Shown here in pieces: positions 186 through 9,748 of a DNA stretch of 10,610 nt. A program made the position numbers and the translations under genes. This stretch comes from a virus, in the UHGV virus genome UHGV-0136196; one strand, written 5' to 3'. Numbering within the stretch: the first letter of the stretch is position 1; every line of letters begins with the position of its first letter. The notes below the pieces were generated by a model that had not been told where the DNA came from, made no database searches, and saw only the letters and a program-made list of their open reading frames with translations.

Positions 186-932
<747 letters not shown>

Positions 933-2598: not shown

Positions 2599-2706
2599 AT
2601 GAAATCCAGAATCAAATCGTTACTTATCGCTGGCTATAACCATGGCTGGCTTAGTTCTGCATTCGTTGAGTTCTGGTTTAACCGTCTCGATCTGAGGTCA
2701 GCGTAA
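2599..2706 (+). CDS. Hypothetical small ORF (35 aa) between the initiator and primase-helicase genes
   Basis: ATG at 2599 with an AGGTGA RBS 5 nt upstream. The stop overlaps the primase-helicase start (TAATG). No recognisable similarity; could be a coupling ORF or spurious. Confidence 0.25.
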   Translation: MKSRIKSLLIAGYNHGWLSSAFVEFWFNRLDLRSA

Positions 2707-4586
2707 TGACTCCAAGTGAACTGAGCGACCTGCTTTGGGCGCAGGTTGACAGGGTGGCTCCGCACCTGTTGCCAAACGGCAAGAAAGAGGGGCATGAGTG
2801 GGTTGCCGGTAATGTCAACGGTGACAAGGGAAACAGCCTTAAGGTCAACCTTAGCGGCAAGAAAAAATGGGCTGATTTCGCCGAGGGAGACGGCGGTGAC
2901 ATGCTTGATTTGTGGATGGCATGTCGTGGAATTAACCTGCATCAGGCTATGCAGGAAGCGAAAGCATTTCTCGGTATCAAGGATGACGATCACCATTTCG
3001 ATGCCAGACGTGAGAAGAAATTCTCCAGACCTGATCGCAAGAAAATCGCCCGCTACGTTACCAGAACAGAATCCCATCTTGAGTACCTGCAATCGCGTGG
3101 CATATCGCCAGAAATCGTAAAGCGCTACGAGGTTGTCAGCGGCAAGGTGTGGAATGGAGAGCGGGAACTGGATGCTCTGGTGATTCCGTACAAACGCGAT
3201 GGTGAGTTGTTGCAGGTCAAGCGAATCAGCACTGAGCGCCCGGACGGGAAGAAAGTCATTATGGCAGAAGGTGATTGCGAACCTTGTCTGTTCGGATGGC
3301 AGGCTCTGGACGCTGGCGTGAGGGCGGTTGTACTTTGCGAAGGCGAAATTGATTGTATGAGCTATGCGCAATACGGCATCTCGGCGTTATCCGTACCGTT
3401 TGGTGGAGGGAAAGGCGCTAAGCAACAGTGGATTGAGTTTGAGTATCACAACCTCGACAGGTTTGAGGAAATATTCATCTCGATGGACGTTGATGATGTT
3501 GGTCGTGAAGCCGCAAGGGAAATCGCAAGCCGACTCGGTGAACATCGTTGCCGTCTTGTTACTCTGCCGTACAAAGACATCAACGAATGCCTGATGAACG
3601 GTGTTACCGAGGATGCAATCTGGCAGTACATCGGCACGGCATCCTACTTTGATCCTGAAGAACTCTACAGCGCGCGAGAGTTTTACCAGGACACTATCAA
3701 CGCTTTCTACGGCAAGCAGCAGTATCTGTTTAATCCACCGTGGGAATCTCTGGCAGATAAATTCCAGTTCCGTGAGGCCGAGTTGACGCTGGTCAATGGT
3801 GTGAACGGTCACGGAAAAACGGAGGTTGTCGGGCATATGGCACTTGAGGCAATGCGTCAGGGTGTGAAGACGTGCATCGCGTCACTTGAGCTGAAGCCTG
3901 GTATTCTCCTTAAGCGCCTTACCCGTCAGGCAACGTGCTGCAAGATGCCGCCAGTGCTGGAAATTGACTCTGCATTTAAATTTTATGACGAAAGACTTTG
4001 GGTGTTTGGCCTGACCGGAACGGCGAAAGCCGACAGGCTGATCGAAATATTCGACTACGCTCGCCGCCGATACGGGATCCAGTTATTCATCATCGACAGC
4101 CTGATGAAATGTGGCATAGGCGACGATGACTATAACGGGCAGAAAGCGTTTGTTGACTCGATATGTGACTTCAAAAATAAAACAAACTCCCACGTCATTC
4201 TCGTTACTCACTCGCGAAAAGGAGACAGCGAAGAAAAACCAACCGGGAAAATGGACGTAAAAGGCTCTGGAGCGATAACAGACCTGACAGACAACCTTTT
4301 CATCATCTGGCGTAACAAGGCTCGCGAGAGAGCGTTACAGAGAGTTCAGAGTGGTGAAAAGATGTCAGAGAAGGACGAACAGCTACTGGCATCTCCGGCA
4401 TCTGTTTTGATGCTTGAAAAACAACGTAACGGCGAAGGTTGGGAAGGTGGTGTCCCGTTGTTCCTTGACGAGCAATCGCACCAGTTCCTGCAACTTGAAT
4501 CAGGATCGCCATATAGCTACATCGCCAATATGCCGAAATCGGAATATGACGAGGCGTGGCGACAGGAAAACGTGACGGAGTATTAA
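2706..4586 (+). CDS. Bifunctional DNA primase-helicase (TOPRIM-type primase domain fused to a DnaB/RecA-like P-loop helicase domain)
   Basis: 626 aa with a GAGG RBS upstream. TOPRIM-like motifs are present (conserved Glu in VVLCEGEIDCMS; DxD in ISMDVDDVGREAA). Walker A is GVNGHGKTEV and Walker B-like is LFIIDSLMK. It occupies the position of lambda P. Confidence 0.85.
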   Translation: MTPSELSDLLWAQVDRVAPHLLPNGKKEGHEWVAGNVNGDKGNSLKVNLSGKKKWADFAEGDGGDMLDLWMACRGINLHQAMQEAKAFLGIKDDDHHFDARREKKFSRPDRKKIARYVTRTESHLEYLQSRGISPEIVKRYEVVSGKVWNGERELDALVIPYKRDGELLQVKRISTERPDGKKVIMAEGDCEPCLFGWQALDAGVRAVVLCEGEIDCMSYAQYGISALSVPFGGGKGAKQQWIEFEYHNLDRFEEIFISMDVDDVGREAAREIASRLGEHRCRLVTLPYKDINECLMNGVTEDAIWQYIGTASYFDPEELYSAREFYQDTINAFYGKQQYLFNPPWESLADKFQFREAELTLVNGVNGHGKTEVVGHMALEAMRQGVKTCIASLELKPGILLKRLTRQATCCKMPPVLEIDSAFKFYDERLWVFGLTGTAKADRLIEIFDYARRRYGIQLFIIDSLMKCGIGDDDYNGQKAFVDSICDFKNKTNSHVILVTHSRKGDSEEKPTGKMDVKGSGAITDLTDNLFIIWRNKARERALQRVQSGEKMSEKDEQLLASPASVLMLEKQRNGEGWEGGVPLFLDEQSHQFLQLESGSPYSYIANMPKSEYDEAWRQENVTEY

Positions 4587-4691
4587 ATGACCATCTACAT
4601 CACTGAGCTAATAGCAGGGTTATCGTTACTAATGGTTCTTACTGTATATATTATTAAGTATATTCTTTATGCGAATAAAAAAACCAATTGA
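4587..4691 (+). CDS. Hypothetical small hydrophobic peptide (34 aa)
   Basis: The ATG overlaps the primase-helicase stop (TAAATG). The translation MTIYITELIAGLSLLMVLTVYIIKYILYANKKTN looks like a single transmembrane helix. Lies in AT-rich DNA, and its 3' end overlaps the HNH gene start. Confidence 0.2.
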   Translation: MTIYITELIAGLSLLMVLTVYIIKYILYANKKTN

Positions 4692-5280
4692 TCACGATGA
4701 GCTTCTGTCAACATTATCATATGACTCAGAAACAGGAATATTTAAATGGCTAAAAACAAATTCAGTAGTAAGAGTAAAAGGTAGTATTGCTGGAGGTGTT
4801 AGTGGTGGTTATATATGCATTAGCATAAATAATGTTTTGTATTATGCGCATAGGCTTGCTTGGTTCTATGTATACAAAAAATGGCCTCCTAAGTTTATTG
4901 ATCATGTAAATGGGAACAGACTTGACAATAGGATTTCAAATCTAAGACTGGCAACAGAGGAGCAGAATGCAAGAAACATTGTAGGTAATAGGTTAAACAC
5001 ATCCGGTGCGATTGGAGTGTCTTGGGATAAGACAACTGGCAGGTGGAAGTCTTATGTTGGTTATAAAAATAAGACAATATCGTTAGGGTATTTCGATAGC
5101 AAAGAAGATGCAGCATTCATAGCAGCACTAGCAAGAAAGAAACTATATGGAACTTATGCGAGTAAAGCACTTAATTGCGAGCATGAGCTTTTATCTCAAT
5201 TTAATAATGATGAGGATAAACTTGCGGAATATCTTAAGGAAAAATCTAAAAGGACTCGAAAGCGTGTTAAAAAAAGATAA
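4669..5280 (+). CDS. HNH family endonuclease with AP2-like DNA-binding domain (homing-endonuclease-like)
   Basis: 203 aa. HNH motif region (IDHVNGNRLDNRISNLRLATEEQN), an AP2-like segment (GVSWDKTTGRWKSYVGYKNKTISLGYFDSKEDAA), and a basic C-terminal tail. The gene is markedly AT-rich compared with its neighbours. Confidence 0.8.
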   Translation: MRIKKPIDHDELLSTLSYDSETGIFKWLKTNSVVRVKGSIAGGVSGGYICISINNVLYYAHRLAWFYVYKKWPPKFIDHVNGNRLDNRISNLRLATEEQNARNIVGNRLNTSGAIGVSWDKTTGRWKSYVGYKNKTISLGYFDSKEDAAFIAALARKKLYGTYASKALNCEHELLSQFNNDEDKLAEYLKEKSKRTRKRVKKR

Positions 5281-5313
5281 AGGCCTGCTGGTAATCGCAG
5301 GCCTTTTTATTTG
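5281..5313 (+). terminator. Intrinsic terminator (tR2-like)
   Basis: Perfect 8-bp stem AGGCCTGC / GCAGGCCT with an 8-nt loop, followed by TTTTTATTT. The sequence matches the lambda tR2 hairpin as I recall it. It sits immediately after the HNH stop codon. Confidence 0.85.
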
Positions 5314-5327
5314 GGGGAGAGTAAATC

Positions 5328-5534
5328 GTGGTTGAGTTGATTTTCTCTGCATTGAGGCTTCTCGGTGCTCTGTGGATGGTGGCGACGTTCATTGTGGTTG
5401 CTGGCTGTTTTGTCCGGTTGGTAGGCGAAGGTAAAGACCTGGTGGGTGTGCTTTTCGGTAGCATTTTCCTGTGGGTGATTATCGGTGTTATGCCTGTCGC
5501 TGTAGCAAAAATGGCGTGGCGTTTTGTGAGTTGA
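5328..5534 (+). CDS. Hypothetical small membrane protein (68 aa, two predicted transmembrane helices)
   Basis: GTG start at 5328 with a GGGGAGAG RBS 6 nt upstream (this RBS resembles the lambda ninB RBS). The translation is strongly hydrophobic (LLGALWMVATFIVVAGCFVRLV ... VLFGSIFLWVIIGVMPVAVA). Confidence 0.5.
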   Translation: MVELIFSALRLLGALWMVATFIVVAGCFVRLVGEGKDLVGVLFGSIFLWVIIGVMPVAVAKMAWRFVS

Positions 5535-5551
5535 ACTGAGGGTAAGTACCG

Positions 5552-5872
5552 ATGGACGAATCAAGAAAGCAGTTTGAAGAAAGCTGGTTGCGACGTGGGG
5601 GCGAATCTTCAGACCTTATCCGTTACCCTGAAAATCACCATGAAATTGGCAGCGGTAATATTGGTGGTCAATACGTGATGGACGATGTTCAAGGCCACTG
5701 GCAAACGTGGCAGGCATCGCGAGCAGCTATTGAAATAACCGCGCCAAAGTTTATCGACAGCAGAGAAGCCTTAGCCAAAGGGTTTACTGTTGATTATTCC
5801 AATGGCTTCGGTGATGCAATGGATGCTTATGAGGAAAACATCCGCGCTGCTGGAATCAAAGTGAAGGAGTGA
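5552..5872 (+). CDS. Hypothetical protein (106 aa, acidic, soluble)
   Basis: ATG at 5552 with a GAGG RBS about 10 nt upstream. Codon usage matches its neighbours. No motif I can assign. The stop overlaps the next ORF. Confidence 0.55.
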   Translation: MDESRKQFEESWLRRGGESSDLIRYPENHHEIGSGNIGGQYVMDDVQGHWQTWQASRAAIEITAPKFIDSREALAKGFTVDYSNGFGDAMDAYEENIRAAGIKVKE

Positions 5873-6071: not shown

Positions 6072-6482
6072 GTGAAGCAAACAATCTTCCTCCGAACTAA
6101 GCAACAACAGCAAGCCGCAATAAATGCCATCCTCGCAACACCACTCGATAAAGACAAGCCAGTCACCATCCGCATTACTGACTACAAGCGAAATCTTGAC
6201 CAGAACGCAAAATTTCACGCGATGGTCGCAGATATCGCCAGGCAAGTTCAGTGGCGCGATAAATGGTTAAAACCAGAACAATGGAAGGTTTTGTTGATCA
6301 GCGGTCATGCAGTGGCAACAAAGCAGGAAGCTGATGTTTTGCCCGGGCTTGAAGGCGAATACGTCAACATCCGCGAAAGCAGCGCGCAGATGAGTGTAAA
6401 GCGTATGGCAAGTCTTATCGAGTACACAACAGCCTGGGCTATTGGTCATGGTGTCAGATTTACCGACAGGAGGTACGAATGA
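6072..6482 (+). CDS. ninB: NinB (Orf family recombination mediator)
   Basis: 136 aa. GTG start with a TAAAGGAG RBS. Conserved NinB/Orf motifs relative to lambda NinB are visible (RNLDQN, QVQW..KWL, EQWK), but overall it is divergent from the lambda allele. Confidence 0.75.
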
Positions 6483-9152: not shown

Positions 9153-9159
9153 CCATAAT
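9130..9159 (+). promoter_or_regulatory. PR'-like late promoter (-35 TTGACA at 9130..9135, -10 CATAAT at 9154..9159, 18-bp spacer), presumed Q loading region
   Basis: Near-consensus sigma70 hexamers overlapping the 3' end of the Q-like gene, followed about 20 to 50 nt later by an intrinsic terminator. This is the canonical PR'/qut/tR' arrangement. Confidence 0.6.
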
Positions 9160-9170
9160 TAGAAGGTAAG

Positions 9171-9213
9171 CTGCCGTTAGTGACTCTTAAGTTGCAACGG
9201 TGGCTTTTTTGTT
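9171..9213 (+). terminator. tR'-like intrinsic terminator downstream of PR'
   Basis: Stem CTGCCGTT (9171..9178) pairing with AACGGTGG (9196..9203, including G-U pairs), followed by CTTTTTTGTTT. The downstream sequence GCACAACAGGTAAGAGCATTGA matches what follows tR' in lambda as I recall it. Confidence 0.55.
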
Positions 9214-9748
9214 TGCACAACAGGTAAGAGCATTGAACCCGCAGACCTCGCGGAATTGGTGAAAGGTGCCGCGCAGTACTCTTATCGTTGTGGTGAATAC
9301 GCAGGCTGATGCGTTAATCAGGTGAACGAGACACCCGCCGGTCCGTGATATGGCACACCGTGCCGGTCATATCTGCCGCGGTTAGGTTTACGAGGATTTC
9401 GTAAAGCTGGTCTAGGGTGAAGCCGTGAAAGCGGAGGAAGTAAAACGAGGCGTCGGTACACGCCTATCGTCATTAAGTCGGAGTTCAGCACCGACCGCCA
9501 CAACCCAACCTGAGCCGTAGCCACTGGCTATCCTGAATTCATCAGTGATAGTTATGCTGCGGCTTTCTACACATGACCTTCGTGAAAGTGGGTGGCAGGA
9601 GGTTGCGCTAACAACCTCATGCCGTTTTGCCCGTGCATATCGGTCACGAACAAATCTGATTACTAAACACAGTAGCCTGGATTTGTTCTATCAGTAATCG
9701 ACCTTATTCCTAATTAAATAGAGCAAATCCCCTTATTGGGGGTAAGAC

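Follow-up and report, generated by a model that had tools for sequence, protein, structure and literature searches.

Proteins with an N-terminal HNH nuclease domain and a C-terminal AP2 domain are presented as a class of homing endonucleases in PMC10448857, citing Magnani et al. (2004). The "IPA-HNH" genes of the Vibrio phage ICP1 have this domain order, are free-standing, and lie where exchangeable modules meet (PMC10448857). A gene of the same build occupies an AT-rich insert in the UHGV virus genome UHGV-0136196, of which a stretch of 10,610 nt was analyzed (the window, to which all coordinates refer). Based on open reading frame (ORF), Pfam, and PHROG comparison, the window is from a lambda-like phage, of which it represents the early-right and late-control region. 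The gene lies between a helicase gene and the terminator tR2, outside any intron or intein and without an autonomous transcription unit. The HNH_3 profile fails to recognize the ICP1 genes, which have diverged too far (PMC10448857), whereas the present gene matches it strongly. Also unlike the ICP1 genes, its lineage is found in temperate lambdoid phages at one fixed site, the foot of tR2. The seg and mob genes of T-even phages, such as T4 mobE (PMC2790892), are likewise small intergenic nuclease genes that vary by presence or absence between related phages, have neither their own promoters nor their own terminators, and are expressed at a low or controlled level. However, these genes belong to other nuclease subfamilies and have virulent hosts, and homing and co-conversion are experimental findings there, whereas here they are predictions. 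I-HmuI of the Bacillus phage SPO1 (PDB 1U3E) has the D-H...N...N catalytic residues in common with the present protein. In contrast, the I-HmuI gene is not located in an intergenic linker but in a group I intron of a DNA polymerase gene, and where the present protein has its AP2 domain, I-HmuI has a C-terminal helix-turn-helix (about 20% identity).

The gene is already known from annotated phages. It is HK022_57 of HK022 ("putative endonuclease"; NP_597900.1) and the "homing endonuclease" of PA28, and is also found in Shiga toxin (Stx) phages such as Stx2 phage 1717 and in RefSeq (WP_001220570.1, "HNH endonuclease"), in each case as the same gene at the same site. The window copy shares 97.7–100% DNA identity with the annotated copies and has no material difference from them. 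Given these public records, the gene is ordinary and of low novelty, and new information is confined to the anatomy of the junctions and some side observations.

The insert is probably a free-standing HNH-AP2 homing endonuclease gene placed in the linker that joins the replication module to the nin region. The identity of the gene and the anatomy of the insert are secure, and cleavage of the empty linker and homing would be its predicted behavior. In this process, the protein would bind as an elongated monomer to a co-resident lambdoid genome without the gene, at its intact linker, and the bound enzyme would nick or cut this empty linker. Repair dependent on Red or RecA would then copy the 665 bp from the occupied allele via homology arms of 32 and 41 bp. 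Occupied alleles would be immune to cutting because the insert splits the target site. The parts of the locus are as follows:

4619–5283 (equivalent to 4616–5280), plus strand: insert of 665 bp, delimited by ATG-to-tR2 spacing, junction alignments, and GC content
4587–4618, plus strand: left half of the ancestral target, comprising the first 32 nt of a micro-ORF and lying outside the insert
4614, plus strand: G, insert-linked polymorphism of the target (AATAACAGG to AATAGCAGG)
4619–4668, plus strand: AT-rich leader of the insert, 50 nt, GC 0.22
5279–5313, plus strand: tR2 intrinsic terminator, with a 10-bp stem and 8-nt loop (5279–5306) followed by a T-run
5284–5321, plus strand: right half of the ancestral target, comprising the remainder of the micro-ORF and tR2

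A sequence-only reading of this DNA had described an AT-rich island extending from the helicase stop to the terminator. The low GC content is real: positions 4619–5280 have a GC content of 0.340, compared with 0.476 ± 0.025 in 855 equal-sized segments elsewhere in the window (minimum 0.417; z = -5.4). Codon usage is shifted as well. The GC content at third codon positions is 0.256 in the HNH ORF and 0.44–0.57 in the neighboring genes, and the codons AGA, AGG, ATA, and CTA account for 10.3% of the HNH ORF compared with 1–6% in those genes. The left edge, however, had been placed 32 bp too far upstream. Positions 4587–4618 are contiguous with tR2 in lambda, mEp043, Min27, and about 150 sampled viral contigs; because this segment is present in phages without the gene, the first 32 bp of the proposed island are ancestral and the insert starts at 4619.

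Alignment with insert-free lambdoid genomes, which had been suggested as a way to find the junctions, defined both of them to the base. When phage records were searched by megablast, window 4587–5321 was about 98% identical in HK022, PA28, and several Stx phages, and the search also turned up phages that have the same primase/helicase without the HNH gene. The junctions were fixed against the three empty alleles of lambda, mEp043, and Min27 and against an isogenic empty allele (L103). In mEp043, which carries the same primase/helicase gene as the window, positions corresponding to 4200–4618 join those corresponding to 5281–5321 directly, and Min27 is likewise empty. In lambda, the uninterrupted site lies directly 3' of ren (ATGACCATCTACATTACTGAGCTAATAACAGG/CCTGCTGGTAATCGCAGGCCTTTTTATTTGGGGGAGAG, with the slash marking the insertion point) and is followed by ninB. 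The distance from the micro-ORF ATG to tR2 (CCTGCTGG) is 32 bp in empty alleles and 697 bp in occupied alleles, such that the insert measures 665 bp; its ends are ambiguous by 3 bp because AGG is found at both termini. Insertion took place at the 5' foot of the tR2 hairpin (AACAGG/CCTGCTGG), within the micro-ORF spanning tR2. The insert ends its unique sequence with the HNH stop codon as the last triplet, and the first stem bases of tR2 (AAA) come from the insert end. Window 5281–5321 (41 bp) is base-for-base identical to the lambda tR2 region, in agreement with the perfectly conserved hairpin proposed earlier, and homology with other occupied contexts stops at 5321. A terminator scan detected the hairpin at 5279–5306 together with its T-run, and the RNA fold has a free energy of -19.4 kcal/mol (z = -2.1).

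The G at 4614 was found in eight of eight occupied alleles and in none of the 119 empty alleles in the first sample. Among the approximately 150 empty alleles of the extended sample, one (L135) carries G, which rules out this base as part of the insert; judging from these alleles, it is a linked target polymorphism. Phage 1717 was rejected as an independent witness of the left boundary at 4618, since the break there is an ISEc8 insertion. In this Stx2 phage (NC_011357, 14876–17317; L127, 59–2500), ISEc8 has entered the insert 8 bp from its left end, with the target GGTTATCG duplicated, and cuts the nuclease gene off from the upstream operon and the leader ORF.

The gene and its domains have the following positions:

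4669–5280, plus strand: HNH-AP2 endonuclease gene, 203 amino acids (aa); its TAA stop (5278–5280) abuts the terminator foot
4840–4983, plus strand: HNH (beta-beta-alpha-metal) catalytic core, aa 58–105, defined by Pfam HNH_3 and alignment with I-HmuI
5002–5163, plus strand: AP2-type DNA-binding domain, aa 112–165; C-terminal helices and a tail rich in Lys/Arg (aa 170–203) come after it

The assignment of this gene as an HNH/AP2-type endonuclease was upheld by domain searches. The HNH_3 profile (PF13392) is matched with 57.8 bits (cut-off 24.8; E = 8e-16) by aa 58–102 across profile positions 1–46 of 46, and phrog_99 ("HNH endonuclease") is matched with E = 4e-72. An NCBIfam search with the protein gave no match. 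A precomputed AP2 match is present in the identical protein cluster (P0001) and in most homologues. In addition, the protein has fold similarity to a solved HNH_3/I-HmuI-like member, and its AP2 domain has a three-stranded sheet packed on a helix that is superposable on solved AP2 domains. The half of the protein that comprises the HNH domain is I-HmuI-like in its DNA-binding part as well. The HNH core contains D78 and H79 (codons at 4900–4905) as well as N91 and N100/N103, and D78/H79/N91/N100 align onto D74/H75/N87/N96 of I-HmuI. In an alignment of 55 homologues, H61, R62, L63, A64, W65, D78, H79, N87, N91, R93, and N103 do not vary, and conservation of N100 reaches at least 90%. The catalytic residues are intact rather than mutated, and nuclease activity is predicted. 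Enzymes of the I-HmuI type are nickases. Nicking by I-HmuI itself has been demonstrated, whereas the activity of the present protein is a prediction from its sequence. Work on the 1U3E structure reportedly assigned functional roles to the Asp-His residues and structural or metal-binding roles to the Asn residues.

The HNH-AP2 family comprises 1,783 database proteins and is found in 3,423 phage records, and several copies per genome are common in T5-like and Felix-O1-like phages. The protein relatives of the lambdoid lineage are about 40–50% identical, with no true relative above approximately 50%, and no DNA relatives of the insert at 80–97% identity were found. All eight full-length alleles are intact. 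Their variable codons include eight synonymous and six amino acid-changing ones, and these counts together with the eight intact copies suggest that the HNH ORF is under purifying selection. The window allele differs from the other seven by the private residues P6 (codon 4684–4686), D120 (5026–5028), and T122 (5032–5034), and the latter two belong to the first AP2-domain strand.

The distribution of the insert is a presence/absence polymorphism at one fixed site, with the same junctions in all occupied alleles. The target linker is 73 bp long and near-invariant among phages that lack the gene. In an IMG/VR sample, the exact right half-site of tR2 (a 38-mer) was found in at least 120 viral contigs, and among the 120 matches listed, 116 sites are empty and four have the HNH insert. 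A second viral sample, anchored on the left half-site, contained approximately 150 empty and seven occupied sites. No other cargo was found at the insertion point in the 120 listed IMG/VR contigs or in the extended sample of about 150 sites. Among 5,426 complete Escherichia coli genomes, 126 (about 2%) harbor a total of 138 insert copies, all with at least 97.7% identity, and 119 genomes have an intact HNH-to-tR2 junction. Right half-sites, matched from window 5250–5321, are located at 2,848 places in 1,954 of the 5,426 genomes. Overall, about 4–5% of tR2 sites are occupied and essentially all copies are located at this one site. The insert is also present in 19 phage records, with the same minimum identity, and these copies and those of E. 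coli form a single young lineage. Among genomes that represent one species each, it was found in E. coli only, such that no donor lineage could be identified. These patterns, in combination with the foreign composition, agree with the earlier impression of a free-standing gene that looks like a homing element. Moreover, the gene is missing from most phages with the same primase/helicase and thus is not a constant part of the replication module.

The genes surrounding the occupied sites are diverse. Occupied alleles are located behind at least five unrelated upstream genes (HK022 P, Ren, an 89-aa ORF, the HK97-type helicase, and the primase/helicase) and ahead of at least five downstream contexts, and each context class also exists empty. 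Across the sites sampled, 28 distinct upstream 40-nt contexts all meet the linker at the same ATG. Identical 665-bp copies were found in unrelated contexts: the copy behind HK022 P equals that behind the L071 helicase, and the copy behind PA28 Ren equals that behind the 89-aa ORF of Stx2_16002. The largest distance between any two insert copies is 14 of 665 positions. The W224N insert is 100% identical to that of the window, and the downstream genes differ. In Min27 (L004, 2788–3057) and Stx2_16002 (L005, approximately 2788–3057), the extra 89-aa ORF follows the primase/helicase stop and precedes the micro-ORF ATG, and in Stx2_16002 it is stacked with the HNH insert. This stacking indicates that the zone 5' of tR2 gathers small accessory genes.

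Expression of the HNH gene is probably linked to the micro-ORF that the insert interrupts. In insert-free phages, a hydrophobic ORF of 26–27 codons begins at or overlaps the stop of the upstream gene and extends through the tR2 hairpin and T-run. This micro-ORF (window 4587–4618 plus 5284–5335; lambda L006, 1068–1148) is conserved and mostly unannotated in lambdoid phages, lambda included; the lambda product is MTIYITELITGLLVIAGLFIWGRGKS (phrog_5907). The insert splits it after codon 11. The relevant features in the window are:

4587–4691, plus strand: chimeric hydrophobic ORF of 34 aa, with ancestral codons 1–11 and insert-encoded codons 12–34
4577–4580, plus strand: GGAG Shine-Dalgarno motif located 6 nt upstream of the micro-ORF ATG, still within the end of the helicase gene

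A possible 34-aa hydrophobic ORF ahead of the nuclease gene had been proposed before. Such an ORF does exist, but it is a chimera of the micro-ORF and insert sequence. It starts right at the helicase stop (TAAATG), ends in the insert-encoded tail LSLLMVLTVYIIKYILYANKKTN, overlaps the HNH start by 23 nt, and is annotated as HK022_56 in AF069308. Its grand average of hydropathy is 1.01, and that of the lambda micro-ORF is 1.15. A GGAG, GAGG, or AGGA motif is found at -15 to -4 of the micro-ORF ATG in six of the seven unrelated classes of upstream genes, compared with a background of 7.2% (P ~ 9e-7). Because unrelated genes supply this motif, the ancestral micro-ORF is probably translated. Polymorphism within the micro-ORF provides a weak excess of synonymous over non-synonymous changes (seven vs. 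five, P = 0.02; one alternative frame has five vs. seven), and the Shine-Dalgarno test is the stronger evidence of the two. Ribosomes crossing tR2 could alter termination.

No promoter-like site was found on the plus strand within 4300–5700, and the only terminator at the element is the resident tR2. The insert has neither a promoter nor a terminator of its own, the pair of features that characterizes a moron. Given its position upstream of tR2 and this lack of a promoter, the HNH gene would ride the early-right transcript from pR. The 50-nt leader (4619–4668) has no Shine-Dalgarno motif, promoter-like site, or notable RNA structure. An RNA structure controlling the HNH start was also considered and rejected, since positions 4570–4720 fold no better than shuffled sequence (z = 0.31). 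The protein is probably made at a low level during lytic growth via termination-reinitiation from the leader ORF. Such coupling is the most likely route because the leader ORF has its GGAG at a distance of 6 nt and extends 23 nt beyond the HNH ATG, which itself has no Shine-Dalgarno motif.

Several observations weigh against homing as an explanation for this insert. First, the insert spans five upstream and five downstream context classes, which is no more than neutral single-nucleotide polymorphisms (SNPs) of the linker do, and random sets of seven empty sites span 4.0 ± 0.9 and 3.8 ± 1.0 classes. After these controls, context diversity was rejected as evidence of endonuclease drive. Because the linker is a general recombination joint, ordinary module shuffling could explain the distribution without any drive. 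Second, an occupancy of 4–5% is low for efficient homing; prophage repression of pR would limit the opportunities. Third, an imperfect 9-bp direct repeat is found at both ends of the insert (AATAGCAGG ... GATAA-AGG, compared with the target AATAACAGG). Such a repeat is not a homing hallmark and hints at a founding event that was illegitimate or mediated by microhomology. Fourth, the AP2 match (PF00847, 32.6 bits, E = 1e-7) is 0.7 bits under the gathering cut-off of 33.3, and the missing Shine-Dalgarno motif makes expression of the HNH gene no more than putative. Finally, a literature search found no publication that characterizes this gene or its cleavage, target, or homing.

Taken to their end, these observations would describe a passive passenger that entered once by an illegitimate or microhomology-mediated event and has since been carried by ordinary recombination at the 73-bp linker, a history that is possible but on balance unlikely. 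The accompanying assumption, held to be about as unlikely, is that the nuclease is inactive on this site, aimed elsewhere, or decaying. Neutral SNP alleles of the linker reassort across contexts as widely as the insert does, and the joining of all 28 upstream contexts at one ATG, the repeat at the junctions, the low occupancy, and the split or truncated state of some E. coli copies (H42 and H70) are all expected from a passenger. However, a passenger would not readily account for eight of eight full-length copies being intact with a synonymous excess, or for catalytic residues that match the invariant positions of a family that acts as multi-copy mobile genes in virulent phages. The identical copies in contexts that share only the 32-bp and 41-bp arms are also easier to explain if a break stimulates recombination. 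For the homing endonuclease reading, the linked G4614 and these identical copies fit super-Mendelian spread with co-conversion of the flanks, whereas context diversity equals that of the neutral linker SNPs.

The early-operon position of the gene bears on another explanation, in which the enzyme serves inter-phage competition or exclusion by cutting the DNA of competing phages, lambdoid or other, without the protective allele. The benefit would go to the carrier phage or lysogen, and homing would be a by-product or absent. A gene in this operon would be expressed when a competitor co-infects, target-like linkers exist as prophage sites in 1,954 of the 5,426 complete E. coli genomes, and the ORF has signs of purifying selection. 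On the other hand, the pR operon is repressed in a lysogen, such that a prophage copy would give the cell no protection. A defence or anti-defence role had been raised before, and PADLOC offers little for it: the HNH protein has a single weak match (PDLC03687, "homing endonuclease", E = 1e-3), the neighboring genes have no matches, and there are no partner genes. Exclusion overlaps mechanistically with homing, the two being inseparable by sequence alone, and as a distinct function it appears improbable.

The position of the gene relative to ren was also reassessed. The gene had been placed exactly where lambda carries ren, but this resemblance is limited to a rough map position. The empty target of lambda lies within the 73-bp ren-ninB spacer, 3' of ren, and PA28 has both genes, Ren first and then the HNH gene. 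The proteins are unrelated, Ren lies 5' of the insertion site, and Pfam and PHROG searches of the HNH protein found no similarity to Ren. The window has no ren because replication modules of the primase/helicase type (e.g., that of mEp043) carry none. It is very hard to regard the gene as a stand-in for Ren, or as a domesticated AP2 regulator with a non-nucleolytic action at tR2 or elsewhere, even though it lies between the replication genes and tR2 in roughly the position of ren. The model for such a regulator is the CasPR-type repressors, which are derived from homing endonuclease DNA-binding domains and have no nuclease domain (bioRxiv 10.64898/2026.02.23.707548), and in other phages, co-opted AP2 domains serve as repressors (bioRxiv 10.64898/2026.02.23.707548; PMC10448857). 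In contrast to the CasPRs, the present protein has an intact and conserved HNH core. Furthermore, the gene is missing at about 95% of sites, including those of phages with the same replication module.

Two other rearrangements were found at this linker. In five viral contigs (L136, L138, L148, L151, and L153), an alternative terminator (GGGCTATTTACACAGTAGCCC and a T-run) is present in place of the tR2 hairpin. It starts at the exact HNH insertion point (AACAGG/) and leaves the micro-ORF with an open, hydrophobic frame (MTIYITELITGAIYTVALFYW...). The shared position suggests that the same nucleotide is a recurrent breakpoint. A Logan contig (L128, 3919–4516; SRR10380363) contains a chimeric HNH gene, of which the left junction, the leader, and approximately the first 65 codons are those of the tR2-site element. 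At the AHRLAW motif, this gene switches to a different HNH-AP2 gene that abuts rusA, and tR2 and ninB-ninF are missing. The arrangement looks like a natural nin-type deletion via recombination between two HNH paralogues. The protein P0004 (62% identity) was considered as an older independent orthologue at the same position and rejected, because it consists of the left junction and about 65 first codons of the tR2-site element fused to a different HNH gene beside rusA. A short HNH ORF is also found just 5' of rusA in mEp043. From the alternative terminator at AACAGG/ and the paralogue recombination that deleted tR2 through ninF, a broader proposal may be drawn, namely that the natural target is the tR2 linker itself, as the near-universal joint at which lambdoid replication and nin modules are swapped, and that breaks there help to drive mosaic exchange. 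As an added component, the insert would have split a translated micro-ORF and given it a different hydrophobic tail, such that ribosome traffic across the terminator, and with it N-independent read-through of tR2, would differ between occupied and empty phages. This combined proposal is rather doubtful.

The homing endonuclease reading, if correct, is of modest significance, as it would add one more selfish nuclease gene at a module boundary in temperate phages, several of which are Shiga toxin phages. If the enzyme cuts the intact tR2 linker, it would be a natural tool that targets lambdoid prophages in the 1,954 E. coli genomes noted above and a plausible contributor to recombination among Stx phages. 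Since lambda carries the empty site, the enzyme would in that case also provide a simple system for homing in temperate phages. The junction anatomy, including the insertion point, the linked SNP, and the interrupted micro-ORF, provides the exact substrates for a cleavage test.

The other genes of the window are arranged as follows:

186–899, minus strand: lambda-type cI
Between cI and the O-like initiator: cro, then a cII-like gene
1798–2595: O-like initiator
2706–4586, plus strand: bifunctional primase/helicase, 626 aa (Pfam Toprim_2, AAA_25, and DnaB_C; phrog_239, E = 3e-171), context outside the element
3' of the element and 5' of NinB: 68-aa ORF (phrog_1165)
6072–6482: NinB
3' of NinB: further nin-region ORFs, then lambda-type S and R lysis genes

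Two minor features of this region were recorded. A segment of about 600 bp between the Q-like gene and the holin (9153–9748) has the highest GC content of the window (0.54) and no long ORF; a search for tRNA genes in this segment found none, and it is presumably the late promoter and leader region. Within the O-like initiator gene, a 21-bp unit (GGTGGGGCAGGAGCTGCCCGG) is repeated 3.9 times at 2089–2173 and codes for a Gly/Ala-rich stretch. By analogy with the lambda ori, which lies inside O, these repeats are probably origin iterons.

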